This document shows, piece by piece, positions 2,819-64,000 of a stretch of DNA of 64,000 nt; position 1 is the stretch's first letter; each line of letters opens with the position of its first letter. Location: the sequence record PP410321, one strand, 5' to 3'. The position numbers and the translations under genes were made by a program. This DNA comes from Escherichia phage vB_EcoM_CUA3. Below the pieces are notes generated by a model. It had not been told where the DNA came from, ran no database searches, and worked only from the letters and a program-made list of their open reading frames with translations.

Positions 2819-3024
2819 AATTANNNNNNNNNNNNNNNNNNNNNNNNNNNNNNNNNNNNNNNNNNNNNNNNNNNNNNNNNNNNNNNNNNNNNNNNNNNNN
2901 NNNNNNNNNNNNNNNNNNNNNNNNNNNNNNNCCAGAGATATCCAAATTCACCGGTGGCTAGCGTTATCCAGTACTTTCTCATAAAGTCTCCTNNTNTANG
3001 GCACTCATGTACCATACATATTTA

Positions 3025-7732: not shown

Positions 7733-7761
7733 ATAATATCATGTCATGAGGAGAAGTAAAC
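7733..7761 (-). promoter_or_regulatory. early-type promoter with SD-complementary spacer
   Basis: minus-sense GTTTAC, 17 nt, TATTAT; spacer TCTCCTCATG is the exact reverse complement of 5'UTR CATGAGGAGA containing the SD. Confidence 0.6.
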
Positions 7762-21665: not shown

Positions 21666-22761
21666 TATATTTTTCCATAGGCACCATTATATTTTTCTCA
21701 CGTTTTAAGATAGGGTAATTATAACACTTCACAATTACAGCATTANNNNNNNNNNNNNNNNNNNNNNNNNNNNNNNNNNNNNNNNNNNNNNNNNNNNNNN
21801 NNNNNNNNNNNNNNNNNNNNNNNNNNNNNNNNNNNNNNNNNNNNNNNNNNNNNNNNNNNNNNNNNNNNNNNNNNACCACGTCCTCATAACTTGGCATTTC
21901 GTGCTCAGAATGGATATGGGCACCGAAATAAATGAATTCAGCCAGACCCGGATGGAATACTAAACCCGGGTTCTCATGATAAATGATATGTGGTCTTGAT
22001 TTCAGAATCTGATAATATTCAACCTTACTCGGTTTGAATTTAACAATCTCTACATCAGGACGATAGTCTTCACGTTTAAATGAATCGTTAGGGTCAGTGA
22101 TATAAAGACGAGCACCTTCAGCCGCAGCTTGGTCTACAACTCTTTCGAATTGATAACACTTATCCGAAATACGGAATGGATGGAAAATACCATCAATTTT
22201 AATAGGCGCTAGACCTTCAGAGTAACGCTCAATTACTACCGGATTAATTACCTTTTGATCTACAAAAATCTTATCAGAGGATGCACCTCGTGACACCAGG
22301 ACGTCTTTCTGACATTGGTTCAGGACCGTGGTATAAAGTGAACGTTCAACTGAAGCCACATCAATATCAATGAACTCGTCAATATAATAACGAGGAACTT
22401 CAGGGTCCATTGTGATATTAAAGTTGAATTGTACAGTCTGAGCACCATCATAACCTGTGATATCGGTTACCAGTCCTGAGCAATCATAGTATTCGATTAG
22501 CGAATCGACCACAAACTCGTTTTCAGACCAGAAATGTTTACGGGTTTCATAAGCATTTTCTTTATACCAAAGCGGCACAAAATTCAGTTCAGGAAATAAT
22601 TCAATGCATTCTTTGATATCGCTCGAATTTCTAGGATAAGCCAGATAATCACCTGGACGAGCACGATTTAAATGGAGTTGAAAATTACCGTCCTTAAGGA
22701 CGGCATATTCACCTGTTTCGTAACTACGCATACTGAAAATAGGAACGATAAACAGACTCAT
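21637..22761 (-). CDS. hypothetical protein in the beta-glucosyltransferase slot (candidate DNA sugar transferase); 3' end uncertain
   Basis: 374-aa track ORF between gene 42 and uvsX; no resemblance to T4 beta-gt as recalled; C-terminal part is N-masked and the ORF reads through a promoter-like region, so the true stop is probably upstream of 21700. Confidence 0.35.
   Translation of the reverse strand: MSLFIVPIFSMRSYETGEYAVLKDGNFQLHLNRARPGDYLAYPRNSSDIKECIELFPELNFVPLWYKENAYETRKHFWSENEFVVDSLIEYYDCSGLVTDITGYDGAQTVQFNFNITMDPEVPRYYIDEFIDIDVASVERSLYTTVLNQCQKDVLVSRGASSDKIFVDQKVINPVVIERYSEGLAPIKIDGIFHPFRISDKCYQFERVVDQAAAEGARLYITDPNDSFKREDYRPDVEIVKFKPSKVEYYQILKSRPHIIYHENPGLVFHPGLAEFIYFGAHIHSEHEMPSYEDVXXXXXXXXXXXXXXXXXXXXXXXXXXXXXXXXXXXXXXXXXXXXNAVIVKCYNYPILKREKNIMVPMEKYNVRFKIPFD
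21718..21745 (-). promoter_or_regulatory. possible middle promoter upstream of uvsX
   Basis: minus-sense GCTGTA, 12 nt, TGtTATAAT; CCCTATC follows; the -35 side abuts an N run. Confidence 0.3.
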
Positions 22762-23456
22762 TTCAGAAAACCTCGGACGTAGTCAAAATCACGTTCAAAC
22801 ACGTGTGCACTTACCATGGTATGAGAATATGTACCCAAACCAACACCACACTGTTCAGCAATAAAGGCCATCAGTTTACCTTGCAGATAAAAATCCAGCT
22901 GCATAACAACAGCACAGTTCTGTGAACGCATATGAGTGTGTGCATACAAACGACCATCACGAATATAATACGTTACTGAATCAGTGCATGGATATTCTAA
23001 GGATTCATCAGAATCAAGGAGGGCTTGGTCTTGTTCTTGGAGAATCTGGAATACAACTCTTCGGGAGTTAGGCTTTTCTTTAAGCTCTTTAAGTAGGGCT
23101 GGGAGTTGGGCCACAATTCGAGGTCCATAGAAAGTGTTGAAGTTTGCAGGCAATACGTCACTTTTCGGCTTATCAATGAACTTAGCAACATTAGGGTATT
23201 CCTTAAATGCTTCGGCAGCGTCAGTACCGCCAGAAATCATAAATTTCCAAAAGGATTCGGCATATTCGTAACTAATACGATTAATACGTGGGTCGGTGAA
23301 TTTATAGGTGCTTGCATCCAGTACTTCTACCGAAGCAGAACCAATTTCATAGCAACGTCCGATACGAGAATCAACTGCAAACTGTGGAGCTTCCAGGATT
23401 TCTTCGTTCATTTGTTTAAATGCGTTTTCAAAACTAACAGCGGTAATGTGTTTCAT
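22758..23456 (-). CDS. 42: deoxycytidylate 5-hydroxymethyltransferase (thymidylate-synthase fold)
   Basis: 232-aa ORF; catalytic-Cys context EYPCTDSVTYYIRD and MRSQNCAVVMQLDFY align with T4 gp42 FMCTNTVQYLIRD...MRSNDVVFGFRNDY, including the Asp equivalent to T4 Asp179 that marks cytosine rather than uracil specificity. Confidence 0.7.
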   Translation of the reverse strand: MKHITAVSFENAFKQMNEEILEAPQFAVDSRIGRCYEIGSASVEVLDASTYKFTDPRINRISYEYAESFWKFMISGGTDAAEAFKEYPNVAKFIDKPKSDVLPANFNTFYGPRIVAQLPALLKELKEKPNSRRVVFQILQEQDQALLDSDESLEYPCTDSVTYYIRDGRLYAHTHMRSQNCAVVMQLDFYLQGKLMAFIAEQCGVGLGTYSHTMVSAHVFERDFDYVRGFLK

Positions 23457-23989
23457 TTATTCACCTTATTTTCAATATATCCATTCAGACGTTTTAATTC
23501 TACCATATCAACATTAAGCAAATTATTATGGCCGTCGTGGTTTAAGATTTTAAACACGTTTTCAAAACATGTTTCGTATTGCCGGATAGTTAGGTTGAAC
23601 TCATCTTTGGTTAATTTAATAAGGTCGTCTTCAAAGTCTTCATCTAATGGATTACGAGTTAAAATAACCTCGATAACGTTAAATTCAGATTTAAACCCTT
23701 TCCAATCTTCCAGTTCTACATAAGGGTCCATTTCACCACGAAGGAATCCGGAGTAAACAATATTACTAGGGTATCCACGGTCTAAGATATAGACAAAATT
23801 AGGGTCTAAAAACTTATACAAGGTTTCAACCAAAGCCTTGTCATTATCAGTTCCTAATGAAATACATTTACCATTAATCTTTTTAGGAAAATCAATAAGA
23901 CGATATTTCTTATCAGATAAAAGGGTTTCGATTAAAGTAGACTTCCCGGAATTATCCGGGCCGTCTATAACAATGATTTTTGGATTCAT
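23453..23989 (-). CDS. P-loop nucleoside-monophosphate-kinase-like protein
   Basis: 178-aa ORF; Walker A GPDNSGKST; DRGYPSNIVYSG resembles the thymidylate-kinase DRY motif; no T4 gene at this position. Confidence 0.55.
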   Translation of the reverse strand: MNPKIIVIDGPDNSGKSTLIETLLSDKKYRLIDFPKKINGKCISLGTDNDKALVETLYKFLDPNFVYILDRGYPSNIVYSGFLRGEMDPYVELEDWKGFKSEFNVIEVILTRNPLDEDFEDDLIKLTKDEFNLTIRQYETCFENVFKILNHDGHNNLLNVDMVELKRLNGYIENKVNK

Positions 23990-24384
23990 GGATGATAGGC
24001 CTTATAACTATCAAGAGTTCCTTCACGAACCATTTCTTTAAAGTGGTCAGGACGGATTGCTCGGTCATCGATGATAAAAGTATAACTCGGCTTGTGTGTA
24101 AGCAAATTGTGATATTTCAATCCAATTTTTTCAAGGTTCTTAACCAATGCAGGAACTACTTCAACCAAGATTCGACCTGGGCCACATGAAGTCATACCAC
24201 GGGCAGTGAACAATGTAATCTCATGACCTTCATCGTACAGCTTATTAATCATGGACACCATTTCGGTGTCCGGTTTAAAGTTTTCATAATCACGGTCATG
24301 GTTCCAAATCGTGATTGTGTTATCGATGTCAAAGCACAANNNNNNNNNNNNNNNNNNNNNNNNNNNCATTAAATTTTCTTCCAT
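23986..24384 (-). CDS. HAD-superfamily phosphatase
   Basis: 132-aa ORF; HAD motif I LCFDIDNTIT; N-terminus partly N-masked. Confidence 0.55.
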   Translation of the reverse strand: MEENLMXXXXXXXXXLCFDIDNTITIWNHDRDYENFKPDTEMVSMINKLYDEGHEITLFTARGMTSCGPGRILVEVVPALVKNLEKIGLKYHNLLTHKPSYTFIIDDRAIRPDHFKEMVREGTLDSYKAYHP

Positions 24385-26042
24385 TGTTTGTGGAGTTCAG
24401 TAGAACCTGTAGGTTTATATTTTACACCAGTTTCCTGGTCAAGCAAAACCCACTTATCAGGGCAACGAGTAATAATTTGTGCCGTAATAGGGTCACGAAC
24501 TTCATCAACGAATTCACCTGTAATAAGCTTACGCTTACGAGGATGCCGCTTCAGCAGCACACTCAATTGATACAAACCGTTATAATAAGCGCCCAGAGCT
24601 TTCAGAGGATTATTCTTAAAGTAACCTGCCAGTGCCATCCAGATAACAGCAATCCAGAGCTTGTGCTTAAATGTGCACATAGGAATATCGTCTAAAGGCA
24701 TAACCTTTTCAATATCAACGAATACACGAGTTCCGTTACGAGTTAAGCCGCCCCATAGAGGGTCTGAGTTAAATTTGTCATAGCCATCGATAGAATAAAG
24801 CACCTTGGCTTCGTCATAAATCGCAGGGCCTTTAGAACTATTGCCGAAATAACCTCGTGGGTCGATGATTTTAATATCACCTTCGTCCGACAACATAATA
24901 TTGCTATAGTGCGGGTCGCCGTGAATAAGTTGGTATGGTTCTTTATGTTCGGACAGAATTTCTAAGGCATGACGTAGAAGTTTTTCAGGGTCGCCTACCT
25001 TGAAATCGTTAACATGGGTAATGCCCTGTGGAGCAAAGCCTTCAATCAATCCAGCAATAGAAGCATTACGAATCAGGACCTTATCCAATACTTCTTTCTT
25101 AACATCAGAATACCATTGCTCATCAGTCGGATTATCAATAGTTCCACCGAATGAACGTAATGCACTAATGACCTTATAAACCATGAGGACTTTAGTTTCT
25201 TTAGACATGAACCGGTAGGCATCTGCCATGGTACGACCAAAGATACGTTCCATTTTAATGAATTCGCCCGGAGCAAAGTCTACAATGCTCGGAACGAATT
25301 CAGAATCAATAGAATTATACCAATTGATTTCTTTAGATTGGATTTCTTTACCTAATTCGTTGGTTGGTACTTTAATAGCCAGATTCTCAGTGAATTCTAA
25401 TTTATTAAATTCACGGTTAATTTCAGATTCTTCATGAGCCTTGGCCAGTTTCAGTTTATCACCGACATCAACTACAAAGTCTAGTTTACGTTCGGTCAAA
25501 TAGACCATTGAATCCAGGTTATCAGCAAGGTCTTCACCGTAATTGGAACGGTCGAAACCTGTCCAATTAGCCACCTGATACAAACCAACTACGCCGCCAC
25601 CGGTACCAATTTCGCGCAAGTACGGTTCTTCAAATGTAAAACGACAATCGGTTCCATAGGTATAACAGTAGTCGTTACCCCATTCAACTTTATGGCCGAT
25701 AGGAATAATATCACACCAGTTAAACAGGACGTTATGCCCGATAATATCTTCAGCAATGCAATCGATAGCATGAGCTGAACCATTAGCAACATCAACGTTA
25801 CGAATAGTAAACTTAGGCTTATCGCCCGTAATCATGTTAATGGATTTAATATAGCCTTTAACGAGGTCGTTAAATTTGCTATGGATTACCAAAATGATTT
25901 CGTCGGATTGGTTACTGTACAAATCATACAAATGCTTTAATACCGTATGTTGTTTGTAGTTAACCAATACCTTAGGAATTTCGTTAGTAATTGGATACAA
26001 CCGTGAGCCAAGACCTGCGCCTAAAATAACAACCTTTTTCAT
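24369..26042 (-). CDS. bifunctional sugar-1-phosphate nucleotidyltransferase / sugar kinase (APH/choline-kinase fold)
   Basis: N-terminal KVVILGAGLGSRLYPIT...PKVLV is the G-x-G-x-R-L NTP-transferase signature; C-terminal LIHGDPHYSNIM...IKIIDPRG is the APH/ChoK catalytic HGD...N...D motif; start set at the internal ATG (MKKVVIL) with GAGGAA SD. Confidence 0.7.
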   Translation of the reverse strand: MKKVVILGAGLGSRLYPITNEIPKVLVNYKQHTVLKHLYDLYSNQSDEIILVIHSKFNDLVKGYIKSINMITGDKPKFTIRNVDVANGSAHAIDCIAEDIIGHNVLFNWCDIIPIGHKVEWGNDYCYTYGTDCRFTFEEPYLREIGTGGGVVGLYQVANWTGFDRSNYGEDLADNLDSMVYLTERKLDFVVDVGDKLKLAKAHEESEINREFNKLEFTENLAIKVPTNELGKEIQSKEINWYNSIDSEFVPSIVDFAPGEFIKMERIFGRTMADAYRFMSKETKVLMVYKVISALRSFGGTIDNPTDEQWYSDVKKEVLDKVLIRNASIAGLIEGFAPQGITHVNDFKVGDPEKLLRHALEILSEHKEPYQLIHGDPHYSNIMLSDEGDIKIIDPRGYFGNSSKGPAIYDEAKVLYSIDGYDKFNSDPLWGGLTRNGTRVFVDIEKVMPLDDIPMCTFKHKLWIAVIWMALAGYFKNNPLKALGAYYNGLYQLSVLLKRHPRKRKLITGEFVDEVRDPITAQIITRCPDKWVLLDQETGVKYKPTGSTELHKQWKKI

Positions 26043-53800: not shown

Positions 53801-54651
53801 TTAGGTTCACCATATCGCACAAATTTAGGATGTTCGCACCCACCAGAATAAAGGCCTTCGCCTTTATGGTTAATGCACCCTTTATTGGAACAGTACCACC
53901 AGTAATCATATTCGCAATTCATTTCATCATTGCATAAAGCTGCGATTACCGGCCATTCACATTTTTCACATTTAGCCGTTTTAAGAATTCTAGCTTGGCT
54001 CATAACCANNNNNNNNNNNNNNNNNNNNNNNNNNNNNNNNNNNNNNNNNNNNNNNNNNNNNNNNNNNNNNNNNNNNNNNNNNNNNNNNNNNNNNNNNNNN
54101 NNNNNNNNNNNNNNNNNNNNNNNNNNNNNNNNNNNNNNNNNNNNNNNNNNNNNNNNNNNNNNNNNNNNNNNNNNNNNNNNNNNNNNNNNNNNNNNNNNNN
54201 NNNNNNNNNNNNNNNNNNNNNNNNNNNNNNNNNNNNNNNNNNNNNNNNNNNNNNNNAATTTAGAAACCTTGTCCCAATCACCGCCAGCAATACCACAACC
54301 TATGCGCGGAATATAAATTCTTGGTTTAAACAAAAGGGTTTCTGCTTGTAGATTTAATTCTATCATACAGTTTACTAAAGCACCGTAATCAAGATTAGGG
54401 CCTGGTTCGTATTGGGTGTATAAATTATAGCANNNNNNNNNNNNNNNNNNNNNNNNNNNNNNNNNNNNNNNNNNNNNNNNNNNNNNNNNNNNNNNNNNNN
54501 NNNNNNNNNNNNNNNNNNNNNNNNNNNNNNNNNNNGCTAATTGACCCGCTACACCTGAACCCATAGTGTGAAAACAATTACACCCATGTGCAATAATATT
54601 ACCTTGGAGAAACAGGGCGACGATATCGCCCTTAATATAATTAATAATCAT
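53797..54651 (-). CDS. macro-domain protein with Cys-rich C-terminal region (two N-masked segments)
   Basis: N-terminal IKGDIVALFLQGNIIAHGCNCFHTMGSGVAGQL resembles the macro-domain ADP-ribose-binding core; C-terminus has 9 Cys (CEKCEW...CNDEMNC...CSNKGC...CEH); continuity across the Ns is unverified. Confidence 0.45.
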   Translation of the reverse strand: MIINYIKGDIVALFLQGNIIAHGCNCFHTMGSGVAGQLXXXXXXXXXXXXXXXXXXXXXXXXXXXXXXXXXXXCYNLYTQYEPGPNLDYGALVNCMIELNLQAETLLFKPRIYIPRIGCGIAGGDWDKVSKXXXXXXXXXXXXXXXXXXXXXXXXXXXXXXXXXXXXXXXXXXXXXXXXXXXXXXXXXXXXXXXXXXXXXXXXXXXXXXXXXXXXVMSQARILKTAKCEKCEWPVIAALCNDEMNCEYDYWWYCSNKGCINHKGEGLYSGGCEHPKFVRYGEPK

Positions 54652-55004
54652 TTAGAGTTTAGCCCTCGATTGTAAGAGTCAACGAGTCTGTCTACCATAG
54701 ACGCGCACATTTCTTTGTACTTTTTATCAGACGGAACACATTCAGTAACGTTTAGACGTTGCTCGTATCTTTTAGAAAGAGTTTTCTCTTTCATTCGGCG
54801 ATGCTCGACGTCGTTCTGCCCATCTTTAAAAGCAGCTGTTATTTTTGAACTGAATTCAATAACACATTCAGTATTACTCGGATGACAATAATCTTTTGCT
54901 GTACGGGTGGCATACTCGACAATTGAATTATTTGTATCATCAACCTGTGACGCTAATACTCCCGGAGCAATCAACATAAGCGCTATAGTCATCTGTTTAA
55001 TCAT
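54648..55004 (-). CDS. putative secreted protein
   Basis: 118-aa ORF; signal peptide MIKQMTIALMLIAPGVLA. Confidence 0.4.
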   Translation of the reverse strand: MIKQMTIALMLIAPGVLASQVDDTNNSIVEYATRTAKDYCHPSNTECVIEFSSKITAAFKDGQNDVEHRRMKEKTLSKRYEQRLNVTECVPSDKKYKEMCASMVDRLVDSYNRGLNSK

Positions 55005-55544
55005 TTAATATACCGCCTCAAACATCTTTTTAGATTTTAGGTAATTGGCCTTTTCTAGAACTTCAGAAGCATATTTACTACCTGCTTTGACATTCCAGCC
55101 CGCATTATAAGAAGCAATCGCTTTTCTCAGGTCACCTTTGTGAACATCAATCCAATAAGACAGTTCAATGTAGGCCCAAGAGGCACTGTTCTGTCGTTTT
55201 TGGACCATACGAATTATTTCTTTGTCTGACATCTTCCAACCTACCTGTTGAACACGACTTCTTAACGTAGGCAAGTAATTTTGGAACATGCCATAAGCAT
55301 GGTGCTTATCTTTATTTAAACCCTGATTAATTCCGGCAGATGATTCCTGCCATAACAATCCGGCCATTATATATCCTAATCCTTTTTGATTAGGGTTTTC
55401 TTTGAACTTTCCCGACTTTTGGTATTGTTCACCGAAAGCATACGCATAATGTAAATTATCGAGTTGTTCATTACTGAAAGTAGGCTCTACGCTATGGGCA
55501 GACATACTAACTGTCAATAGTAAAGTGGCTAATACTTTTTTCAT
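55005..55544 (-). CDS. secreted lytic transglycosylase (SLT domain)
   Basis: 179-aa ORF; signal peptide; WQESSAG (catalytic Glu-Ser), AYGMFQ and YNAGWN in SLT-domain order. Confidence 0.55.
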   Translation of the reverse strand: MKKVLATLLLTVSMSAHSVEPTFSNEQLDNLHYAYAFGEQYQKSGKFKENPNQKGLGYIMAGLLWQESSAGINQGLNKDKHHAYGMFQNYLPTLRSRVQQVGWKMSDKEIIRMVQKRQNSASWAYIELSYWIDVHKGDLRKAIASYNAGWNVKAGSKYASEVLEKANYLKSKKMFEAVY

Positions 55545-55556
55545 GAGACCTCATTA

Positions 55557-56015
55557 TTAAAGATAGATTACTTTCGTGCTGGTTTTACCTTCTAAACGTT
55601 TAGAGTTAACAAATGCCATACGGCATTTTAATGAATATCCTTTATCAGGATGTTTACGGTCTACGGTCATACCCAACCATAAGGTTTTATCGGTAATCTC
55701 GAGACGCAGTGGTCGATACACTTTACCTGGGACAATTTCAGATTCTACATCAGGAAGAGGCTCCTGGATTAAAAATTCATGGATTTCTTTAACATGATTG
55801 TGGAGCTTCTTGAACAAAGAGAAAACATATTTTTCGTCAATTTCACGTTGGATAGCACGGTCCAACAGGTGATTAGAGTACTTAATAAAGAAAGCTGGGA
55901 CACCGCTCTTGACGGCGGCTTTTTTGATGGACGCGTTAAGTTCACGAAATTCGGTTTCGAACTGTCGACGTAATTTGTTGCGGCGGATGAATACTTCTGA
56001 ATTAATTTCTGACAT
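55557..56015 (-). CDS. regB: RegB sequence-specific endoribonuclease
   Basis: 152-aa ORF collinear with T4 RegB (EVFIRRNKLRR...HLLDRAIQREIDE). Confidence 0.8.
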   Translation of the reverse strand: MSEINSEVFIRRNKLRRQFETEFRELNASIKKAAVKSGVPAFFIKYSNHLLDRAIQREIDEKYVFSLFKKLHNHVKEIHEFLIQEPLPDVESEIVPGKVYRPLRLEITDKTLWLGMTVDRKHPDKGYSLKCRMAFVNSKRLEGKTSTKVIYL

Positions 56016-56043
56016 TTTGTAATCTCCTGTAGTTGATAGGTCT

Positions 56044-56072
56044 ATAGTACCACGCCTACAGGAGATGTAAAC
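56044..56072 (-). promoter_or_regulatory. early-type promoter with SD-complementary spacer (regB)
   Basis: minus-sense GTTTAC, 17 nt, TGgTACTAT; spacer ATCTCCTGTAGG pairs with 5'UTR CTACAGGAGAT. Confidence 0.6.
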
Positions 56073-56077
56073 TGCTT

Positions 56078-56356
56078 TTAGTATTTCTCTTCAGGTTGGA
56101 AAACACCACGACAAGCCCACATAGAAGCTTCTTTCAANNNNNNNNNNNNNNNNNNNNNNNNNNNNNNNNNNNNNNNNNNNNNNNNNNNNNNNNNNNNNNN
56201 NNNNNNNNNNNNNNNNNNNNNNNNNNNNNNNNNNNNNNNNNCNTCTTCAAGCGCTTTAAAGATTAATCCCAATCGAACTTCAGCATCTTTGATGGCATTC
56301 ACTTTACCGATTTTATCGTCGGTATGTGGCTTGTAACCTTTGATATCTTCAATCAT
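56078..56356 (-). CDS. hypothetical protein (partly masked)
   Basis: 92-aa ORF. Confidence 0.3.
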   Translation of the reverse strand: MIEDIKGYKPHTDDKIGKVNAIKDAEVRLGLIFKALEXXXXXXXXXXXXXXXXXXXXXXXXXXXXXXXXXXXXLKEASMWACRGVFQPEEKY

Positions 56357-56571
56357 TTCACTTCCTCGCCAGTTGCGATATCATATTCTACCAAACGAAG
56401 GCCTTCANNTCCANCNCTNACCGAGATATACGTAGTCGGGTAAACCATTTCTTTACCATTCCACTGACCACCATCCCAGACTTCCAGAAAGTCTTGTTCN
56501 NNNNNNNNNNNNNNNNNNNNNNNNNNNNNNNNNNNNNCTGCATCAGAGCCTTCAATTGTCAATTTAGACAT
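56353..56571 (-). CDS. hypothetical protein (partly masked)
   Basis: 72-aa ORF. Confidence 0.3.
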   Translation of the reverse strand: MSKLTIEGSDAXXXXXXXXXXXXXEQDFLEVWDGGQWNGKEMVYPTTYISXXXGXEGLRLVEYDIATGEEVK

Positions 56572-56860
56572 ATTTTTTCCAGTCAGAAATCATACGAATC
56601 TCTTGGTCATAAGTCAAGAGACTACGAGTAATAATACCCTTACAAGGCCCTGAGATGAACTCGAGAGTGAAGTAAGGAACCAATTTCATTAATCGGATGC
56701 TTGGGGCATGGCATCTAAAACGAGAGCCCTTAAAGGGCCCTGTCATGAATACATATTCCAATGGATAGAAATAAGCATATTCGAAATTTGTAGTAAGGTC
56801 CTCTCTTCGAACCTTACGTGAGAAATAACAGAACTCAAAAAGCTCTTCATCAGTCATCAT
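56564..56860 (-). CDS. hypothetical protein
   Basis: 98-aa ORF. Confidence 0.35.
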   Translation of the reverse strand: MMTDEELFEFCYFSRKVRREDLTTNFEYAYFYPLEYVFMTGPFKGSRFRCHAPSIRLMKLVPYFTLEFISGPCKGIITRSLLTYDQEIRMISDWKKYV

Positions 56861-57384
56861 TGCATTCCTATCACAAAGAACAGCGGCAGAGGTTTAGAAC
56901 CCTGGCACATAAATTTATTAATCATTACCTGGTAAGCTTCATAAAACTTATCCATCGCCGGAAGGCGCATTGGCTCTTCGATAATAATCAATAATCGAGT
57001 AACAGATAGTCCACGATACTTATGGAAATTGTCTTCATCNAANANTGNNCGTACAGTATCATACACAACAAACCCAGGACCTTCTACTTGAAGGTGTGGT
57101 TGGGCCTTAGAAACCCTTTTTATTATATTACAGATTTCTCGTGAGCGATGTGAAGAACTTGACATAACAATTACATCATTACCCTTGGAAACCCAATCAG
57201 CTGCGAACTGGGCAAGGGCGCTTGTTTTACCTGTTTGCCTTCCCCCGTCAAGTCGAAGAGTACCAAACTCTTGCATTCTTGAAGCGGGTTCGTACCAGGT
57301 GTATTGGTCTGAATCTAAGCGTTCAATGGCGCGTTCAGCGAAGGCGTGCATTAAGGTTAGATAAATGGGAGTTAAAAATTTCAT
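56857..57384 (-). CDS. hypothetical P-loop protein
   Basis: 175-aa ORF; Walker-A-like GGRQTGKTSA. Confidence 0.4.
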   Translation of the reverse strand: MKFLTPIYLTLMHAFAERAIERLDSDQYTWYEPASRMQEFGTLRLDGGRQTGKTSALAQFAADWVSKGNDVIVMSSSSHRSREICNIIKRVSKAQPHLQVEGPGFVVYDTVXXXXDEDNFHKYRGLSVTRLLIIIEEPMRLPAMDKFYEAYQVMINKFMCQGSKPLPLFFVIGMQ

Positions 57385-57475
57385 AATTGTCTCTTAGTTG
57401 AGGGGCCGTTCCTTGGCACATAATTCATCCCTTTCTCNGNATTTNNACCCATTACCGCACTTGGGCTCGACCTTA

Positions 57476-57844
57476 TTACAGGTTGGNNNNNNNNNNNNNN
57501 NNNNNNNNNNNNNNNNNNNNNNNNNNNNNNNNNNNNNNNNNNNNNNNNNNNNNNNNNNNNNNNNNNNNNNNNNNNNNNNNNNNNNNNNNNNNNNNNNNNN
57601 NNNNNNNNNNNNNNNNNNNNNNNNNNNNNNNNNNNNNNNNNNNNNNNNNNNNNNNNNNNNNNNNNNNNNNNNNNNNNNNNNNNNNNNNNNNNNNNNNNNN
57701 NNNNNNNNNNNNNNNNNNNNNNNNNNNNNNNNNNNNNNNNNNNNNNNNNNNNNNNNNNNNNNNNNNNNNNNNNNNNNNNNNNNNNNNNNNNNNNNNNNNN
57801 NNNNNNNNNNNNGATTCTGTAATAAATTGTTGATAAGTTTTCAT
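57476..57844 (-). CDS. internal-protein-like gene (capsid-targeting N-terminus; body N-masked)
   Basis: starts MKTYQQFITE, matching the T4 internal-protein capsid targeting sequence (MKTYQEFIAE) as recalled; lies next to denV as ipII/ipIII do in T4. Confidence 0.45.
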   Translation of the reverse strand: MKTYQQFITEXXXXXXXXXXXXXXXXXXXXXXXXXXXXXXXXXXXXXXXXXXXXXXXXXXXXXXXXXXXXXXXXXXXXXXXXXXXXXXXXXXXXXXXXXXXXXXXXXXXXXXXXXXXXXXNL

Positions 57845-57886
57845 ATTATTCCTTAAGTTGATAGAAGTATTCTATCACGGATTTAA

Positions 57887-58303
57887 TTAAGCGTAAATAG
57901 CCTTACCATAATGTTTGTACCAGGTAGGGCGTTGTGCAATTTTTTCATCCAAACGGGCTTGTGAAATAGCGATAGAAGCTTCGTGAGGAACATAATCACC
58001 ACGGAATTCCTGAGGAATGTCGCTAATATCCTGGACCGTAGTATCCTTGATATTAAAACCACGTTTTAAACATTCGGCTATAAGCTCAATTTGGCGTTTA
58101 CGTAAGAACTCTAGCTTATCGTAAAAGAACGTAACATGACCTGTGCCAAGGATAAAAGTAGGACTGATTTTGAAATCACGAACACGTTTACCATTAGCCA
58201 CATGCTTACGAACTGCACCGAAAACACGGGGTAATTCACGATATTCGGCCATAAGATGTTGGTCAGCCAATTCAGATACTAAGGTAAGGTTGATACGAGT
58301 CAT
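57887..58303 (-). CDS. denV: endonuclease V (pyrimidine-dimer DNA glycosylase/AP lyase)
   Basis: 138-aa ORF, near-collinear with T4 DenV ([26 protein letters not shown]...). Confidence 0.9.
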
Positions 58304-58305
58304 TT

Positions 58306-58758
58306 TTAATCTCCTGTAGTTGATAGGTTTATAGTATCATGCCTACAGGAGATGTAAACNNNNNNNNNNNNNNNNNNNNNNNNNNNNNNNNNNNNNNNNN
58401 NNNNNNNNNNNNNNNNNNNNNNNNNNNNNNNNNNNNNNNNNNNNNNNNNNNNNNNNNNNNNNNNNNNNNNNNNNNNNNNNNNNNNNNNNNNNNNNNNNNN
58501 NNNNNNNNNNNNNNNNNNNNNNNNNNNNNNNNNNNNNNNNNNNNNNNNNNNNNNNNNNNNNNNNNNNNNNNNNNNNNNNNNNNNNNNNNNNNNNNNNNNN
58601 NNNNNNNNNNNNNNNNNNNNNNNNNNNNNNNNNNNNNNNNNNNNNNNNNNNNNNNNNNNNNNNNNNNNNNNNNNNNNNNNNNNNNNNNNNNNNNNNNNNN
58701 NNNNNNNNNNNNNNNNNNNNNNNNNNNNNNNNNNNNNAAATTCATTGTAAGTTTTCAT
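58306..58758 (-). CDS. internal-protein-like gene (capsid-targeting N-terminus; body N-masked)
   Basis: starts MKTYNEF; the rest is masked; position between denV and lysozyme as T4 ipII/ipIII. Confidence 0.45.
58331..58359 (-). promoter_or_regulatory. early-type promoter with SD-complementary spacer (denV)
   Basis: minus-sense GTTTAC, 17 nt, TGaTACTAT; spacer ATCTCCTGTAGG pairs with 5'UTR CTACAGGAGAT. Confidence 0.6.
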
Positions 58759-59480
58759 NNNNNNNNNNNNNNNNNNNNNNNNNNNNNNNNNNNNNNNNNN
58801 NNNNNNNNNNNNNNNNNNNNNNNNNNNNNNNNNNNNNNNNNNNNNNNNNNNNNNNNNNNNNNNNNNNNNNNNNNNNNNNNNNNNNNNNNNNNNNNNNNNN
58901 NNNNNNNNNNNNNNNNNNNNNNNNNNNNNNNNNNNNNNNNNNNNNNNNNNNNNNNNNNNNNNNNNNNNNNNNNNNNNNNNNNNNNNNNNNNNNNNNNNNN
59001 NNNNNNNNNNNNNNNNNNNNNNNNNNNNNNNNNNNNNNNNNNNNNNNNNNNNNNNNNNNNNNNNNNNNNNNNNNNNNNNNNNNNNNNNNNNNNNNNNNNN
59101 NNNNNNNNNNNNNNNNNNNNNNNNNNNNNNNNNNNNNNNNNNNNNNNNNNNNNNNNNNNNNNNNNNNNNNNNNNNNNNNNNNNNNNNNNNNNNNNNNNNN
59201 NNNNNNNNNNNNNNNNNNNNNNNNNNNNNNNNNNNNNNNNNNNNNNNNNNNNNNNNNNNNNNNNNNNNNNNNNNNNNNNNNNNNNNNNNNNNNNNNNNNN
59301 NNNNNNNNNNNNNNNNNNNNNNNNNNNNNNNNNNNNNNNNNNNNNNNNNNNNNNNNNNNNNNNNNNNNNNNNNNNNNNNNNNNNNNNNNNNNNNNNNNNN
59401 NNNNNNNNNNNNNNNNNNNNNNNNNNNNNNNNNNNNNNNNNNNNNNNNNNNNNNNNNNNNNNAGGAGATGTAAACNNNTT

Positions 59481-59969
59481 TTATCTATAAGCGGCCCAAG
59501 TGCCGGTTTTAAAGGTAGAGATAACTCGCTTAGCTCGGTTAGGGGTTTGCTTGTACCAACGAGACTGGGCCAGGTTAACTGCTGCATCGTCCCAACGTTT
59601 TTGCTGAAGCATACGCAGAGAGTTAGTGAACCCTGCTACACCCGCTTCACCCATTTGGAAGACCATATTAATCAATGCACAACGACGAACTTCGTCCAGC
59701 ACATCATAAACAGGTTTCAATTTAGGATTACGCAATATAGCTCTACGAGCATTTTCCACTGAACGATTAAAGAGTTGTTCAGCCTCAGCCATAGTAATAC
59801 GACCATTGCAAACTCGACCCATAAGTTTGTCAAGTTCAGCACGAGCAACATCTTTAGATGGGTTCTTGGTAACTAACTGACCGATACCAATAGTCCAATA
59901 ACCTTCAGTATCTTTATAAAGATTTAAATCAAGACCTTCGTCTTGACGTAACATATCAAAAATATCCAT
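59481..59969 (-). CDS. e: lysozyme (endolysin, T4 e family)
   Basis: 162-aa ORF collinear with T4 lysozyme ([13 protein letters not shown]...[13 protein letters not shown], catalytic Glu11/Asp20 context). Confidence 0.9.
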
Positions 59970-60000
59970 AATTACCTCCTGAGTATAGGAGGTATTTATA

Positions 60001-60450
60001 TTAGAATAACGAACTTAAAACCTTATACATCGATGGACCCATGACATATTCCCATTGCGAACGTTTAATCAAGGCAAAAGCATCGAATTCAGGAATAGTA
60101 CGACCATCAGGGAACGTATGGTAAGCTGTACATTTGCAATCCTTGAACTGCTCGTGTTCCACAGGCACAGTGTATAAGAACAGATGTAGATTCTTATTGC
60201 TTGAGTATTTGAACTCACCTAGGTCTTTCAGGAACGCAGGATCGTATGCAGTGAATCCAATCTCTTCTTCAGTTTCACGCATAGCGGCTTGAATAGGCTC
60301 TTCACCCGGTTCGACATGACCTTTAGGGATGTCCCATTTATGACGCATATTCTCTGGATTACGAGAGCCTGTTACACGACCCATAACCAATTCTTTATCG
60401 GCAGTCATGAACAAAATACCAGCAGATAATTCTTTAACTTTCTTACTCAT
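60001..60450 (-). CDS. nudE: Nudix hydrolase
   Basis: Nudix box [22 protein letters not shown]; start trimmed to MSKKVKEL; position after e as in T4. Confidence 0.7.
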
Positions 60451-60679
60451 CGTCTCGTTTCCATGATTGGTTAAAAATATCTTGCATAATAATTTGAAGT
60501 CTATTTTCTGATGATGGACTTTCACTATCAGACACTTGAAGCATATAGTCACCAATAGGACAGAACATATCCATATCGCTTTCTAAGTCTTCTTTAATTT
60601 TCTCTTCTGATGTTCCGGTATCATAGGAATACAGATAAGAATCACACGACTCAGATTTAATATAAATTGCAATACTCAT
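60443..60679 (-). CDS. hypothetical acidic protein
   Basis: 78-aa ORF. Confidence 0.35.
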   Translation of the reverse strand: MSIAIYIKSESCDSYLYSYDTGTSEEKIKEDLESDMDMFCPIGDYMLQVSDSESPSSENRLQIIMQDIFNQSWKRDDE

Positions 60680-61263
60680 TTACGGCATTCCTCAATAAAA
60701 GAGTTTAATGTATTTTTCTTGGTTATATCGTCATACACCTTTTTAACTTTAGAAATACGAAAAGGTACTTCGATAACAGAGGTCCATAAAAATGATGCAA
60801 TAAGACCTAAGATAGCCGCAGACATCGCTGAAGCGAATACAGTAACAGGCAGCTCATTATCTGTTGTCAGGAAAAACCCTAGGAGCGGGAAAAATAATAT
60901 ACCCATCCAAACATAGAACCTAGAACTCACCAATTTGTCGTATTCATCACTCCATGCACGAAAGCCATATTTTTTGCTATAACAAATCAATGGGTCCGGG
61001 GTCTGTTCTTTATTAGGTTCTGCTTGCCAACCATTTACGATATAACCCATTTTATATTCCTCAATTAAAAGCTGTTTCATTTCAGCGGTACAACCCGACC
61101 AATCTATTGTACTGGCTGAAATTCCTTCATCACCATCATCAATATTTCGCCAGGACTTTTTAATAACCATATTCTCACCACTTGGGATAATAATTCCAGC
61201 ATTTTCTGACCGACGGATGAAGTTTACATCAACACCCATACAACCCGGTTCGTAAAGGGCCAT
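60676..61263 (-). CDS. hypothetical membrane protein
   Basis: 195-aa ORF with two predicted TM helices in the C-terminal half. Confidence 0.4.
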   Translation of the reverse strand: MALYEPGCMGVDVNFIRRSENAGIIIPSGENMVIKKSWRNIDDGDEGISASTIDWSGCTAEMKQLLIEEYKMGYIVNGWQAEPNKEQTPDPLICYSKKYGFRAWSDEYDKLVSSRFYVWMGILFFPLLGFFLTTDNELPVTVFASAMSAAILGLIASFLWTSVIEVPFRISKVKKVYDDITKKNTLNSFIEECRK

Positions 61264-61949
61264 TACCAGCCCTCCATAGGAAATTCCAGATATACTTGAG
61301 CATTAACGCGGATTTCATTAGTAATCTTTTTAACACGGTCTGTATTACGAGACACACGACCAAACCAACGCCAACCATTACTTACTGCACGGGAACCTGT
61401 ATGCCATGTCTGCCAATCGAACTGGAGCAACGTGCGGTCAGGAGCATCCCACTTGGTTAATTCATTAGACTCAATTTTTTCCAGAACTTCTTTATGCCAC
61501 TGGCGATAGATAAGTTCGCCTTCAGGAATCTGACTGAACTGTGCAGTTCCGGTTGCAAAATGAGTAGGACACACATCAGCGTTAACAAGACCAAGAATAT
61601 GTTCAGAATGGTATCGAGGATTATCATAATCAGGTTGCCCTGCGGTAATAAAGTGTTGACCTACCGGAATATCCGGGCGTGGTACATCATCATGGTGGAA
61701 GCCTGGAATTGCAGGGTACCAACCGGGCATTAACATGTGTACACGGGAATCAAATACAANNNNNNNNNNNNNNNNNNNNNNNNNNNNNNNNNNNNNNNNN
61801 NNNNNNNNNNNNNNNNNNNNNNNNNNNNNNNNNNNNNNNNNNNNNNNNNNNNNNNNNNNNNNNNNNNNNNNNNNNNNNNNNNNNNNNNNNNNNNNNNNNN
61901 NNNNNNNNNNNNNNNNAGCTTTAGAATTAAAAGTTTTTGGACCGTTCAT
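61263..61949 (-). CDS. hypothetical protein (N-terminal part masked)
   Basis: 228-aa track ORF. Confidence 0.35.
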   Translation of the reverse strand: MNGPKTFNSKAXXXXXXXXXXXXXXXXXXXXXXXXXXXXXXXXXXXXXXXXXXXXXXXXXXXXXVFDSRVHMLMPGWYPAIPGFHHDDVPRPDIPVGQHFITAGQPDYDNPRYHSEHILGLVNADVCPTHFATGTAQFSQIPEGELIYRQWHKEVLEKIESNELTKWDAPDRTLLQFDWQTWHTGSRAVSNGWRWFGRVSRNTDRVKKITNEIRVNAQVYLEFPMEGW

Positions 61950-61963
61950 AATATTTTCCTCAC

Positions 61964-62188
61964 TTACTTTTTGTTGAAAAAGTACATTTTACCTTTAGGG
62001 GATAAGGATACACGAAGTGCGTTACCAATACCAACTGAACATTTAACCAGGTCAGCAGATTTCAATTCACCAAATGCTTGACGAAGGTCACCGTCACGAG
62101 TGTTAACCATCAGGCATTTAGCACCAGCTGCACGAACTTCGTTTAACATGTTGATTGCTTGGTTAGAAAGTTTCATTTTATTCTCCAT
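61964..62188 (-). CDS. hypothetical protein
   Basis: track ORF trimmed to MENKMKLS, downstream of the promoter cassette that the longer ORF would span. Confidence 0.4.
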   Translation of the reverse strand: MENKMKLSNQAINMLNEVRAAGAKCLMVNTRDGDLRQAFGELKSADLVKCSVGIGNALRVSLSPKGKMYFFNKK

Positions 62189-62213
62189 TTCACTCTGTTG
62201 TTTTGATAGGTCT

Positions 62214-62242
62214 ATAGTATCACACCTATAGACCTTGTACAC
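62214..62242 (-). promoter_or_regulatory. early-type promoter variant
   Basis: minus-sense GTGTAC, 17 nt, TGaTACTAT; perfect 9-bp inverted repeat GGTCTATAG/CTATAGACC around the -10. Confidence 0.5.
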
Positions 62243-62254
62243 TGTTTTATGCAA

Positions 62255-63214
62255 TTATTTTTCGAAAGGGCGAATTAAATGATGGTTATCTTGGAACCGC
62301 TTGATGTAGTCTTCNNNACCTAACGTCTTATACATATTCACTACAGCTTGGTAGTTTTCCCAGGCATACTCACGGAACCACCCGGAAGTAATTGAGGTGC
62401 ACACTTTCTCAAGAGCNNNNNNNNNNNNNNNNNATGGTGAAATATTAAAGTCATTAGGAACCTGCGAACGTTCTAGTGCCAACACACAGGTTTCTTCATA
62501 TACACCAGCTAGTTTAATAGCTTCAGGCAAAGCTTCAAACTTCTCACGAGAGGTCATGACTTCAGAACCATCTTTCATATAAAAGGTATATGCAGGGCGG
62601 CCTGCCAATGCCACGGCTTCATGAATAGAGTCATGGTCCAGCGTATAAATGGTATCGTTAAAGAATGACGATTTATTAACATCCAATTTAGGATGAGAAT
62701 AGCTCAACGTTTCTTTCTGACGTTGCAGCATGATTTCTTGGAGCTCTTCGTTCAAGGTTACACCTTTATTACGAAGGTATTTGATGTGAGACATCGTCTT
62801 CAGAAAGAACGGGTTGTTCTTCAAATAACGATGGCTCATTTTGATGGCCAGACAGATATCAGGAGTAGCCCAATAGAAACCTGTAAGACGGTCTTTCTTA
62901 ATATGGTTTTCAGCATATTTCAAGAGACGATAGCTTGAAGTGAAATCCTCATCTTGAAGTTCGCCAGTAATTTCACGGACATTAGTCAGAGCACGAACGA
63001 TATAAGCTTCAAAATAGGTTTCTTTACCATTGTGCATGCATTTAAAGGCCTGGACATCAGGGTTGTCTACATGTACATGGGCGCCGAACATCCGAGCTTT
63101 AAATTGATTCCATGACCCCTGGTCGGCAATAAAATCCCAATCAGAATTTTCGATATATTTACTTTCAATCAAACCAGCGTGGTGCAGTGCACGAGAACCA
63201 ATAACTAGCATCAT
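62255..63214 (-). CDS. hypothetical protein
   Basis: 319-aa ORF; ATG with GAGGAAAA SD. Confidence 0.45.
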   Translation of the reverse strand: MMLVIGSRALHHAGLIESKYIENSDWDFIADQGSWNQFKARMFGAHVHVDNPDVQAFKCMHNGKETYFEAYIVRALTNVREITGELQDEDFTSSYRLLKYAENHIKKDRLTGFYWATPDICLAIKMSHRYLKNNPFFLKTMSHIKYLRNKGVTLNEELQEIMLQRQKETLSYSHPKLDVNKSSFFNDTIYTLDHDSIHEAVALAGRPAYTFYMKDGSEVMTSREKFEALPEAIKLAGVYEETCVLALERSQVPNDFNISPXXXXXXALEKVCTSITSGWFREYAWENYQAVVNMYKTLGXEDYIKRFQDNHHLIRPFEK

Positions 63215-63241
63215 AATATTTTCCTCATTAATAAAGACGAG

Positions 63242-63394
63242 TTACTTCATATTTACCCAGTTCAGATTTTTTGCTTCAATACGCGTTGCGGCTAGATTAG
63301 CAGCCTCTAGTGAAGAAAATTGGACCACTTGGGAAGTATTCTGCCTTACGCCACCTTGTGGGTGAGTAACAAAAACAATAAGAACATTATACAT
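63242..63394 (-). CDS. hypothetical small protein
   Basis: 50-aa ORF below the track cutoff with GAGGAAAA SD. Confidence 0.3.
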   Translation of the reverse strand: MYNVLIVFVTHPQGGVRQNTSQVVQFSSLEAANLAATRIEAKNLNWVNMK

Positions 63395-63415
63395 AATATT
63401 TTCCTCAGAGTAAAC

Positions 63416-63664
63416 TTAAATTTCAGCAACGTAATCGTTATGCAATTCCCACATATCATCAGAATTATTCTTAATGATAGGAATTATCTCATTAGAGATT
63501 TCTTCTGCATAAGGGTCATTGATACAGTGAGCATCTTCAAAACGAACACCGTAATCAGACTTCTTATAGGCAAAGCCATAAATCTTTTTAAACTTGGCAC
63601 GACTAATGCGCACCGGCTCATCAGACTTATCAGACTTATCAGACAGTGGAGAGTAATACCACAT
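63416..63664 (-). CDS. hypothetical protein
   Basis: 82-aa ORF; GAGGAG SD; promoter-like motif upstream. Confidence 0.4.
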   Translation of the reverse strand: MWYYSPLSDKSDKSDEPVRISRAKFKKIYGFAYKKSDYGVRFEDAHCINDPYAEEISNEIIPIIKNNSDDMWELHNDYVAEI

Positions 63665-63692
63665 AATGTTCTCCTCATGTTTGTGTAAGGTA

Positions 63693-63722
63693 ATAGTAAC
63701 ACAAGTTTTTAGAGTTGTACAT
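63693..63722 (-). promoter_or_regulatory. early-type promoter variant
   Basis: minus-sense TGTACA, about 18 nt, TGtgTTACTAT. Confidence 0.4.
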
Positions 63723-63984
63723 CACTTCTGCAATATTCTAAAAATAATTTATCGCTGTCTACTGTATCCCAACGCCGCCAAGATGGATTCCAGACCAAAG
63801 CGTTGTCACCACAATCATTGAGCTTAAAATGGTCATAGTACATAGCTATGTGTCTAGTCTCGTCACCAGAGAACCCTAGTATAGGCTCGCCATGGGTATG
63901 ATACATATGATGGTGCATTGAGAGGTCGCATTTATAAAACATCTCACGTTTACCACGAACGAACAAGAAAGCTTGCCCGTTCAT
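63709..63984 (-). CDS. hypothetical protein
   Basis: 91-aa track ORF near the window edge. Confidence 0.3.
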   Translation of the reverse strand: MNGQAFLFVRGKREMFYKCDLSMHHHMYHTHGEPILGFSGDETRHIAMYYDHFKLNDCGDNALVWNPSWRRWDTVDSDKLFLEYCRSDVQL

Positions 63985-64000
63985 ATAGAATTCTTTATCT

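Follow-up and report, generated by a model that had tools for sequence, protein, structure and literature searches.

Masked internal-protein gene cassettes on both sides of denV in a probable Dhakavirus close to phage JS10

The window, a 64,000-nucleotide stretch of the genome of Escherichia phage vB_EcoM_CUA3 (PP410321), contains a minus-strand locus in which readable genes alternate with runs of N. The intact lysozyme gene e (59481..59969, 162 aa) forms the upstream border of this locus, and an intact denV gene (57887..58303, 138 aa), which encodes endonuclease V, a pyrimidine-dimer glycosylase, lies within it. Two short coding starts beginning with MKTY flank denV, as described in the initial annotation, and both are on the minus strand. 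The start of gene 1, behind denV, is readable at 57813..57844 and contains a complete 10-residue capsid targeting sequence (CTS), MKTYQQFITE, with an I-x-E processing site, followed by the TC of codon 11 (Ser); its letters, from 57844 to 57813, are ATG AAA ACT TAT CAA CAA TTT ATT ACA GAA TC. The start of gene 2, between e and denV, is readable at 58738..58758 and contains MKTYNEF, the first seven codons of a CTS (ATG AAA ACT TAC AAT GAA TTT, from 58758 to 58738). The 42-nt spacer between denV and gene 1 (57845..57886, minus strand) carries the ribosome-binding site AAGGAA and is nearly identical in every relative bearing a cassette after denV. The N runs occupy 326 nt after the gene 1 start (57487..57812), 378 nt after the gene 2 start (58360..58737), and 704 nt between gene 2 and the lysozyme gene (58759..59462), where additional masked sequence had been correctly reported.

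The sequence features support the assignment of both MKTY starts to internal-protein (Ip) genes, in agreement with the identity originally proposed. The targeting residues Tyr4 and Phe7 are present in both starts, and the processing residues Ile8 and Glu10 are also present in gene 1 (the mapping of these residues is summarised in PMC9026906). The site of the prohead protease gp21, (I/L)-x-E at residues 8–10, for which a check had been suggested, reads I-T-E in gene 1; in gene 2 these residues are masked, and those of its JS10 counterpart read I-A-E. At CTS position 6, gene 1 has Gln, whereas Glu is found in 68 of the 69 CTS ORFs of relatives. Given that only 7–11 codons are readable, the starts might be chance ORF starts, unconnected to head-internal proteins. 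However, the degenerate pattern ATGAARACNTAYMANSARTTY matches only twice in the 64 kb, both times at these CTS starts, and not once in 100 shuffles; both starts lie in syntenic Ip slots behind ribosome-binding sites, and there is base-for-base agreement with annotated JS10 Ip genes, so that a chance origin is extremely improbable. The gene 2 21-mer is identical at 21 of 21 positions to the start of JS10 EpJS10_0112. In relatives, MKTYNEF, even as this exact 21-mer, opens numerous bodies that are unrelated to each other, both here and at a second locus, and is therefore no guide to the body of gene 2. Exact 40-mers and 32-mers spanning the gene 1 CTS had no match in IMG/VR, JGI metagenomes, or GTDB genomes.

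The region can be assigned with good confidence to the e–denV–vs.8 Ip locus of a T4-like Dhakavirus near JS10, with slots for cassettes on either side of denV. The window is collinear, position for position, with Escherichia phage JS10 (NC_012741, Dhakavirus), with 5.2% mismatches and no indels over the 54,278 positions compared. The substitutions are mostly synonymous, mainly at third codon positions, with a transition/transversion ratio of 2.4; denV differs from its JS10 counterpart by 28 nucleotides but no amino acids, and lysozyme by two amino acids. The JS10 flanks of the Ip locus are approximately 93–95% identical to the window, with shared coordinates, gene order, strand, and spacers, and the placement of Ip genes between e and denV agrees with the order e–ipIII–ipII–denV in T4 and with about a dozen Dhakavirus genomes. 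The closest GenBank phage over the flank has 94.4% identity, and a protein search found no exact record of the NudE and e.2 proteins of the window. The exact lysozyme protein also occurs in phage LHE83 (Pfam Phage_lysozyme) and in one Logan contig, and the DNA there is 92–94% identical. The possibility that the window is a simple majority consensus of known genomes was ruled out: approximately 1% of the denV and e sites are private in comparison with about 20 relatives, and many sites in these two genes carry minority alleles.

The window is a projection onto reference coordinates, and ORFs read across its N runs are spurious. The ORF ends at 57476 and 58306 in the initial annotation are artefacts of N translated as X, and N accounts for 326 of the 369 nt (88%) of the first ORF and for 378 of the 453 nt (83%) of the second, the last 54 nt of which (58306–58359) belong to the promoter/stem–loop leader of denV. 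The N runs cover positions at which JS10 encodes CTS proteins of 99, 132, and 198 aa. The 326-nt run corresponds to codons 12–99 of EpJS10_0110 ('internal head protein', 99 aa, stop at 57545 in window coordinates), its stop, and 58 nt of the 3′ spacer. The 378-nt run corresponds to codons 8–132 and the stop of EpJS10_0112 (ip132; hypothetical, a CTS protein of 132 aa, stop at 58360 in window coordinates), and ends exactly at the last base of the stop. The 704-nt run corresponds to the ipIII–ip132 spacer, the whole of ipIII (58800–59396, 198 aa, CTS MKTYKEFITE, an Ip3 orthologue), and 66 nt of the e–ipIII spacer. This run thus represents a third CTS gene position, that of JS10 ipIII, which had been missed and whose CTS is also masked.

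The 56-nt leader of denV (58304..58359, minus strand) contains a promoter-like GTTTAC-N17-TACTAT motif and a stem–loop in which CTCCTGTAG pairs with CTACAGGAG, with the denV ribosome-binding site inside the 3′ arm. The RNA fold of the leader (−19.3 kcal/mol, z = −4.6) was equalled in stability by none of 200 shuffles, and the leader is retained in T4 and all relatives and repeated at 56020–56072, upstream of regB. The 13-mer GTTTACATCTCCT (59463..59475, minus strand), which consists of the −35-like hexamer and the 5′ stem arm of a T4-type early promoter/stem–loop element, starts 5 nt past the e stop; the 704-nt mask leaves no other readable island at its upstream edge. The 13-mer occurs six times (with up to one mismatch) in the window, where 0.06 copies would be expected, and every copy is on the minus strand. 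In relatives, the element is located directly after cassette stop codons, and nearly every cassette has GTTTAC behind its stop. It combines sigma-70-like −35/−10 hexamers with a stable stem–loop, is repeated, and lies at indel boundaries, the combination that defines a promoter-early stem-loop (PeSL). The JS10 locus showed no enrichment of sigma-70-type promoters (8 found vs 6.1 expected in shuffles), and the early-promoter role of the promoter-like GTTTAC element is therefore putative, drawn by analogy from the early promoters of T4 and from PeSLs. A generic terminator scan of the JS10 locus also gave no enrichment over shuffles.

About a dozen Dhakavirus genomes share the same cassette architecture with T4, and Dhakaviruses carry from 0 to 5 cassettes around denV. 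In the T4-like contigs of IMG/VR, 69 CTS ORFs in 31 denV loci fell into 17 unrelated body families, which bears out the earlier description of these loci as hypervariable, and [LIV]xE occupies CTS positions 8–10 in 66 of the 69. At least one cassette was present in the e–denV interval of 9 of the 13 relatives looked at; in Bp7, dhabil, and Ec2-ASingh, e is followed by the GTTTAC element and then by denV, with no cassette between them. An uninterrupted small ORF (about 85–200 aa) lies behind the CTS in JS10 and all relatives, and the mature forms of the relatives' cassettes are 8–21 kDa, with pI values mostly of 8–9.7. JS10 ip132 ends at its C-terminus in ...NWMKTYK*, a CTS remnant. The relatives' cassettes all fall within catalogued PHROG families, annotated as 'internal head/virion protein' or of unknown function; a Pfam search of them returned nothing above threshold, and the cassette families at the denV locus had no BLASTP match to T4 IPI. 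Their PDB sequence matches (repeat protein, M.HhaI, flagellin) were weak and partial, and were judged to be chance.

Each cassette comprises a ribosome-binding site, a conserved 10-codon CTS of the form MKTYxEF(I/L)xE, a body of about 75–190 residues that is unrelated between cassettes and usually basic, a stop, and the GTTTAC element within a few bases of that stop. The conserved 5′ CTS and the conserved 3′ promoter element may act as homology patches, and recombination at these patches would swap, add, or delete whole cassettes. The limits of cassette homology, which are the end of the CTS and the GTTTAC promoter/stem–loop, support exchange at these two patches.

Indirect signs suggest that the N runs are JS10 positions for which no source base was placed, and that the bodies would be replaced or missing relative to JS10; the cassette bodies of the window are probably not those of JS10. 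The mask edges coincide with the ends of the readable CTSs (after codons 11 and 7) and with the GTTTACATCTCCT element, and both edges of the 326-nt mask show WG01/Ec2-type alleles. At one edge, Gln6 and Ser11 of gene 1 agree with a 119-aa protein of WG01/PSD9, whereas the 99-aa protein of JS10 has Glu6 and Ala11. At the other, in the spacer upstream of vs.8 (57385..57486, minus strand, from alignment with relatives), the cassette-proximal part (57431–57486) carries alleles of the WG01/Ec2-ASingh/dhabil type, unlike those of JS10, with a mismatch at 57484. Judging from 11 and 7 residues plus the flank alleles, on which all inferences about the reading-frame continuity, size, and family of the source genes rest, the source most likely carries a WG01/PSD9-type 119-aa cassette instead of the JS10 gene in the slot after denV, possibly with an 85-aa cassette behind it. 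In the e–denV interval, we infer at least one MKTYNEF-headed cassette with a body that is not JS10-like, and an ipIII like that of JS10 is probably missing from its JS10 position.

The masks could also be purely technical, produced by low coverage, ambiguous calls, or deliberate masking, with the 99-aa, 132-aa, and ipIII genes as in JS10. The window retains JS10 coordinates exactly, the MKTYNEF 21-mer is identical to that of JS10, and the mismatch rate beside the masks is only mildly raised (5.4–7.6% vs 5.2% overall), all of which are compatible with a technical origin. This explanation is nevertheless unlikely, considering that the edges of the 326-nt mask are not of the JS10 type and fit the context of the 119-aa cassette (the 'TC' of Ser11, Gln6, and the WG01-type 3′ flank), and that the masks begin and end precisely at cassette boundaries. 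Repeat multi-mapping was ruled out as the cause of the masks at the Ip locus, since each masked JS10 segment occurs only once in the 60 kb of JS10 examined. Furthermore, ipIII and ip132 are >90% conserved among Dhakaviruses and should therefore have been callable, like the equally diverged denV and e. The 21-nt MKTYNEF island, being 100% JS10-like, would also fit a gene resembling that of JS10 but masked on other grounds.

Another alternative concerns the e–denV interval alone, which may have collapsed as in Bp7, dhabil, and Ec2-ASingh, leaving no functional Ip gene and the MKTYNEF 21-mer as a remnant or a product of alignment placement. Identical GTTTACATCTCCT 13-mers lie at both outer mask edges, as they would around a direct-repeat deletion, the direct succession of e, this element, and denV is realised in those three phages, and CTS remnants do exist, as at the end of JS10 ip132. 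On the other hand, a perfect, in-frame, ATG-led CTS start of 21 nt must have come from some part of the source sequence between the two 13-mers, most of the relatives (9/13) have a cassette there, and gene 1 would be unaffected in any case. We therefore consider a collapsed interval improbable, and favour replacement of the JS10 bodies by other cassettes on both sides of denV.

The proposal that these loci encode injected anti-restriction cargo is correct by analogy with T4, where it is already established for the Ip proteins and well backed by the literature. T4 Ip1, Ip2, and Ip3 are inhibitors of GmrSD type IV enzymes, each acting on a different variant, and the same inhibitor role was proposed for all genes of both Ip loci (PMC12373910); T4 IPI* blocks GmrS/GmrD (PMC3012670). 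Extrapolating from the work on T4, the protein would be anchored in the scaffolding core of the prohead through Tyr4 and Phe7 of the CTS and cleaved after Glu10 by the prohead protease gp21, and the mature protein would remain in the head in hundreds of copies, to be injected with the DNA. In the host, it would bind and block one variant of a modification-dependent (type IV, GmrSD-like) enzyme. For Dhakavirus Ip proteins, no virion, cleavage, or restriction data were found in the searchable literature. The phage lineage probably makes arabinosylated cytosines, with arabinosyl-5-hydroxy- or hydroxymethyl-cytosine predicted by the gene cluster at 21868–26042, and the arabinosylated DNA of RB69 is also restricted by GmrSD enzymes (PMC6024577). 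That at least one masked cassette encodes a database-new Ip body, which would inhibit a type IV (GmrSD-like) enzyme attacking arabinosylated cytosines, is a decidedly long shot. A rough Good-Turing style guess gives approximately 5–9% per cassette for a new family, with two or three unread cassettes; singletons made up 6 of the 69 cassettes in the IMG/VR survey and 1 of about 20 in the nine Dhakavirus genomes surveyed first.

Injected anti-restriction proteins are concentrated at Ip loci, and any further family of bodies may bring to light another pairing of an inhibitor with a GmrSD enzyme (PMC12373910). The masked T4-type cassettes at e–denV–vs.8 represent an already known, highly swappable kind of gene and, because the window has no readable cargo, the finding itself has little value. 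The comparison, however, documents the range of cassette numbers around denV in Dhakaviruses, including a slot that is missing from T4.

Among the known systems, JS10 is the nearest, with EpJS10_0110, EpJS10_0112, and ipIII around denV; its MKTYNEF start is identical to that of gene 2 in the window, whereas gene 1 differs at residues 6 and 11 and has a 3′ flank of a different type. The ipIII–ipII locus of T4 has the same flanking genes, e and denV, the same strand, CTS, and I-x-E site, and the GTTTAC promoter/stem–loop after the stops. Dhakavirus relatives share true orthologues of both proteins with T4 (91% identity between the relatives' ipII and T4 Ip2, and 86% between the mature portion of JS10 ipIII and T4 Ip3), and in T4 these are injected inhibitors of the GmrSD variants ECOR21/BrxU (Ip2) and ECOR17 (Ip3) (PMC12373910). 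Dhakaviruses have an extra slot between denV and vs.8, the contents of which vary from phage to phage; T4 has no Ip gene there, and the gene at 57844 therefore fills this extra slot and not the position of ipI. T4 IPI* (Ip1) has the delivery principle in common, namely an N-terminal propeptide, processing by gp21, and injection, but ipI lies at another locus, beside 57B, and its propeptide has 19 residues (MKTFKEF...ITE). PeSL cassettes, through which modules are shuffled in T4-type genomes (Arbiol et al. 2010, PMC2839356), likewise consist of short intergenic sigma-70-like hexamers with a stem–loop between a stop and the next ATG, and like them the GTTTAC element is repeated in plastic regions and placed at indel boundaries. 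The PeSLs of RB49 and phi1 have GGGG...CCCC stems, whereas the stem in the window is CTCCTGTAG/CTACAGGAG; unlike PeSL cassettes, those of the window type have a further patch of homology at their other end, in the sequence that encodes the CTS.

The readable genes at the e–denV locus, where every gene from 57476 to 59969 lies on the minus strand, are lysozyme e (59481–59969) and denV (57887–58303); besides these, what can be read is the short beginnings of two genes and some spacers, the remainder being N in three runs (326, 378 and 704 nt). The starts, MKTYQQFITE(S) (gene 1, 57844→57813) and MKTYNEF (gene 2, 58758→58738), were the only two matches in the 64 kb to a degenerate DNA pattern for MKTY[QNK..][EQ]F, which gave none in 100 shuffles. 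The starts of the capsid targeting sequence (CTS) type described in the initial annotation are therefore real, as are denV, e and the masked stretches around them, all read directly in the window, whereas the ORF ends it quoted (57476 and 58306) are artefacts of N translated as X: these ORFs are 88% and 83% N, and the tail of the second is the leader of denV.

The flanks align with Escherichia phage JS10, a Dhakavirus (Tevenvirinae), and the coordinates are the same in both. Base by base, 5.2% of sites differ, with no indels (54,278 non-N positions) and a transition/transversion ratio of 2.4; the differences are mostly synonymous and concentrated at third codon positions, and denV carries 28 nucleotide changes but no amino acid change. 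The nearest GenBank phage is approximately 94–95% identical to the window, and around 1% of sites in denV and e are private to it in comparison with about 20 relatives. Given this collinearity, the mostly synonymous differences, the private sites and the lack of a closer GenBank phage, the window is, on sequence evidence, a natural, unsampled Dhakavirus-like sequence projected base for base onto JS10 coordinates. Across the whole window (1–64000), 93 N runs total 6250 nt. They have sharp edges, overlie single-copy JS10 DNA and mostly fall on small accessory genes, and isolated single N's fall at sites of clustered substitutions or short indels in relatives. We read N as "no source base placeable", that is, sequence apparently replaced or missing relative to JS10; the N runs would mark structural differences of the source phage from JS10, and any ORF read through them is unreliable. 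One unbroken run (14148–14723) spans both tandem JS10 soc paralogues and their spacer, and soc copy number or type in the source phage probably differs from that in JS10. Just upstream of the internal protein (Ip) locus, a mask (56138–56241) covers the middle third of vs.4 (56078–56356, minus), which we read as divergent from JS10; the vs.4 orthologue in phage LHE83 carries the Pfam domain Acb2_Tad1_hairpin (anti-CBASS/Thoeris sponge family).

At the masked positions, JS10 is annotated with EpJS10_0110, an "internal head protein" of 99 aa (57545–57844; MKTYQEFITEA...), EpJS10_0112, a hypothetical protein of 132 aa (58360–58758; MKTYNEFIAEA...), and ipIII, of 198 aa (58800–59396; MKTYKEFITEA...). 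The mature part of JS10 ipIII is 86% identical to T4 Ip3, and a 100-aa protein of some relatives is 91% identical to T4 Ip2. These CTS genes, together with the JS10 order e-ipIII-X-denV, which is that of T4 (e-ipIII-ipII-denV), support the earlier assignment to internal-protein genes. In T4, denV and vs.8 are adjacent and ipI is located elsewhere, so the gene at 57844 fills an additional slot.

In terms of the cargo of the source phage, gene 1 has Q6 and, at position 11, TC, the first two bases of a Ser codon, as in the 119-aa protein of WG01 and PSD9 (MKTYQQFITEST...), whereas JS10 has E6 and A11; the last readable bases on the far side of the same mask are of the WG01/Ec2-ASingh/dhabil type. 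Because of these two mask edges, we lean towards a 119-aa PHROG-3966 cassette (CTS, body, stop codon and GTTTAC element) after denV, perhaps followed by an 85-aa one as in WG01 and PSD9. The e–denV interval of the source contains at least the 21-nt MKTYNEF start, flanked by two copies of a 13-mer, the first 13 nt of the denV leader. JS10-like ipIII and the 132-aa gene were probably replaced, since both are >90% conserved within the genus and should have been placed like denV and e. The MKTYNEF start is common to many different body families, so the body of gene 2 cannot be named from it. The one novel reading, an unsampled body family hidden by the N's, is rather improbable.

Among relatives (ip plus a number denoting a CTS protein of that aa length), the locus is e/denV, with no cassettes, in Bp7 (record 3514–4507) and dhabil, e/denV/ip119 in Ec2-ASingh, e/ip89/denV/ip99 in UP19, e/ip132/denV/ip99 in IME281, e/ipIII/denV/ip119/ip85 in PSD9, e/ipIII/ip132/denV/ip99 in JS10, e/ipIII/ipII/denV/ip99 in fDHCT2 and LHE83, and e/ip132/ipIII/denV/ip119/ip85 in WG01; AnYang has five cassettes. 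In MN04, a phage placed in the Dhakavirus JS98 species, the order is e/ipIII/ip99/vs.8 and denV is missing (record 2978–3934). Since MN04 lacks denV and Bp7 and dhabil lack Ip cassettes, neither denV nor the Ip genes would be essential, and both would be lost as cassettes turn over. An IMG/VR survey, in which 79 loci with DenV were fetched and CTS-headed ORFs within 3.5 kb were counted, yielded 69 such ORFs in 31 loci, forming 17 body families with undetectable mutual similarity. This diversity, together with the range from zero to five cassettes among Dhakaviruses, bears out the proposed hypervariability. The CTS is near-invariant over ten residues (M1 K2 T3 Y4 x5 E6 F7 (I/L)8 x9 E10), with [LIV]xE in 66 of the 69 ORFs, and (G)TTTAC... 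starts 0–5 nt past the stop codon in nearly all cassettes. Position 6 (57827–57829, minus) is Gln in gene 1 (MKTYQQF) versus Glu in 68 of the 69, a variant otherwise seen only in the 119-aa protein of WG01 and PSD9. The mature proteins are 8–21 kDa and mostly basic, as are T4 Ip1–3. A PHROG already exists for each Dhakavirus cassette family (2667, 15461, 5341, 3966, 7857 and 8765), and Pfam and PDB sequence searches gave no functional lead for the relatives' families. A second Dhakavirus Ip locus, outside the window, was found in IME281 and JS98 and in three further phage genomes of IMG/VR (L012 8145, L017 3440, L013 700, L014 627, L015 548); its CTS proteins of 205 or 154–157 aa (MKTYNEFL...) are preceded by a terminator hairpin and by TATAAATA, a canonical T4 late promoter.

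The T4 CTS targets proteins to the scaffolding core, for which residues 4 and 7 are needed; gp21 cleavage requires residues 8 and 10, and approximately 300 copies of each Ip are kept in the head and ejected with the DNA (PMC9026906). IPI* blocks GmrS/GmrD (PMC3012670); each of Ip1, Ip2 and Ip3 inhibits a single GmrSD variant and gives no cross-protection, and GmrSD-variant inhibition has been proposed for all genes of both Ip loci (PMC12373910). By analogy with T4, the CTS of the window's Ip proteins would dock into the scaffolding core and be cleaved by gp21, and the proteins would be retained in the head and ejected with the DNA, each blocking a GmrSD variant after injection. Between uvsX and gene 43, the window carries an RB69-type cytosine arabinosylation cluster (21868–26042, minus), including a ThyA-like (thymidylate-synthase-like) enzyme (22758–23456, minus) and a nucleotidyltransferase–APH-kinase fusion (24369–26042, minus), with neighbours annotated in JS10 as a kinase and a sugar-phosphate isomerase. 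JS10 stretches 1–50000 and 54000–64000 have no annotated alpha- or beta-glucosyltransferase, and the phage DNA is probably arabinosylated, not glucosylated. Arabinosylation-pathway lineages include Dhakaviruses (PMC13326640), and the substrates of GmrSD enzymes also include arabinosylated RB69 DNA (PMC6024577). The initial idea that a hypervariable locus supplies anti-restriction cargo for injection is thus correct according to the T4 Ip literature (PMC3012670, PMC12373910), and it is already part of textbook and published knowledge. That interpretation is supported in part: its Ip genes and hypervariability are upheld by the relatives and IMG/VR, and novel cargo is a conjecture. The e–denV–vs.8 feature belongs to a known Ip family in an annotated genus, and the window, whose bodies are N, adds no new readable cargo sequence.

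Upstream of denV, 56 nt (58304–58359, minus) contain GTTTAC-N17-TACTAT and a stem–loop, with the denV ribosome-binding site inside its 3' arm (leader fold −19.3 kcal/mol, z = −4.6). A generic sigma-70 scan of the locus showed no enrichment, so promoter function of the GTTTAC element is putative. The first 13 nt of this leader, GTTTACATCTCCT, occur six times in the window (≤1 mismatch) versus 0.06 expected, always on the coding strand just past a stop codon. Between e and denV, nothing can be read at the outer mask edges except two exact copies (58347–58359 and 59463–59475), and the inner edges lie directly after CTS codons 7 and 11; source–JS10 homology therefore ends exactly at the two conserved patches bracketing every cassette, as recombination-mediated cassette exchange would predict. 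The JS10 132-aa gene ends ...NWMKTYK*, with the CTS start fused in frame (JS10 58360–58377, masked in the window). This end, the first five CTS codons, is common to the 132-aa CTS proteins of JS10, IME281, WG01 and SHP1 and is apparently a scar of recombination within the CTS. The approximately 53-nt denV leader (58304–58359, minus) recurs almost identically upstream of regB (56020–56072, minus), and related 13-mers lie past stop codons at 7749, 18705 and 47115; together these suggest a dispersed regulatory element similar to a promoter-early stem-loop (PeSL). The boundary pattern at the cassettes resembles the PeSL shuffling described for RB49 and phi1 (PMC2839356).
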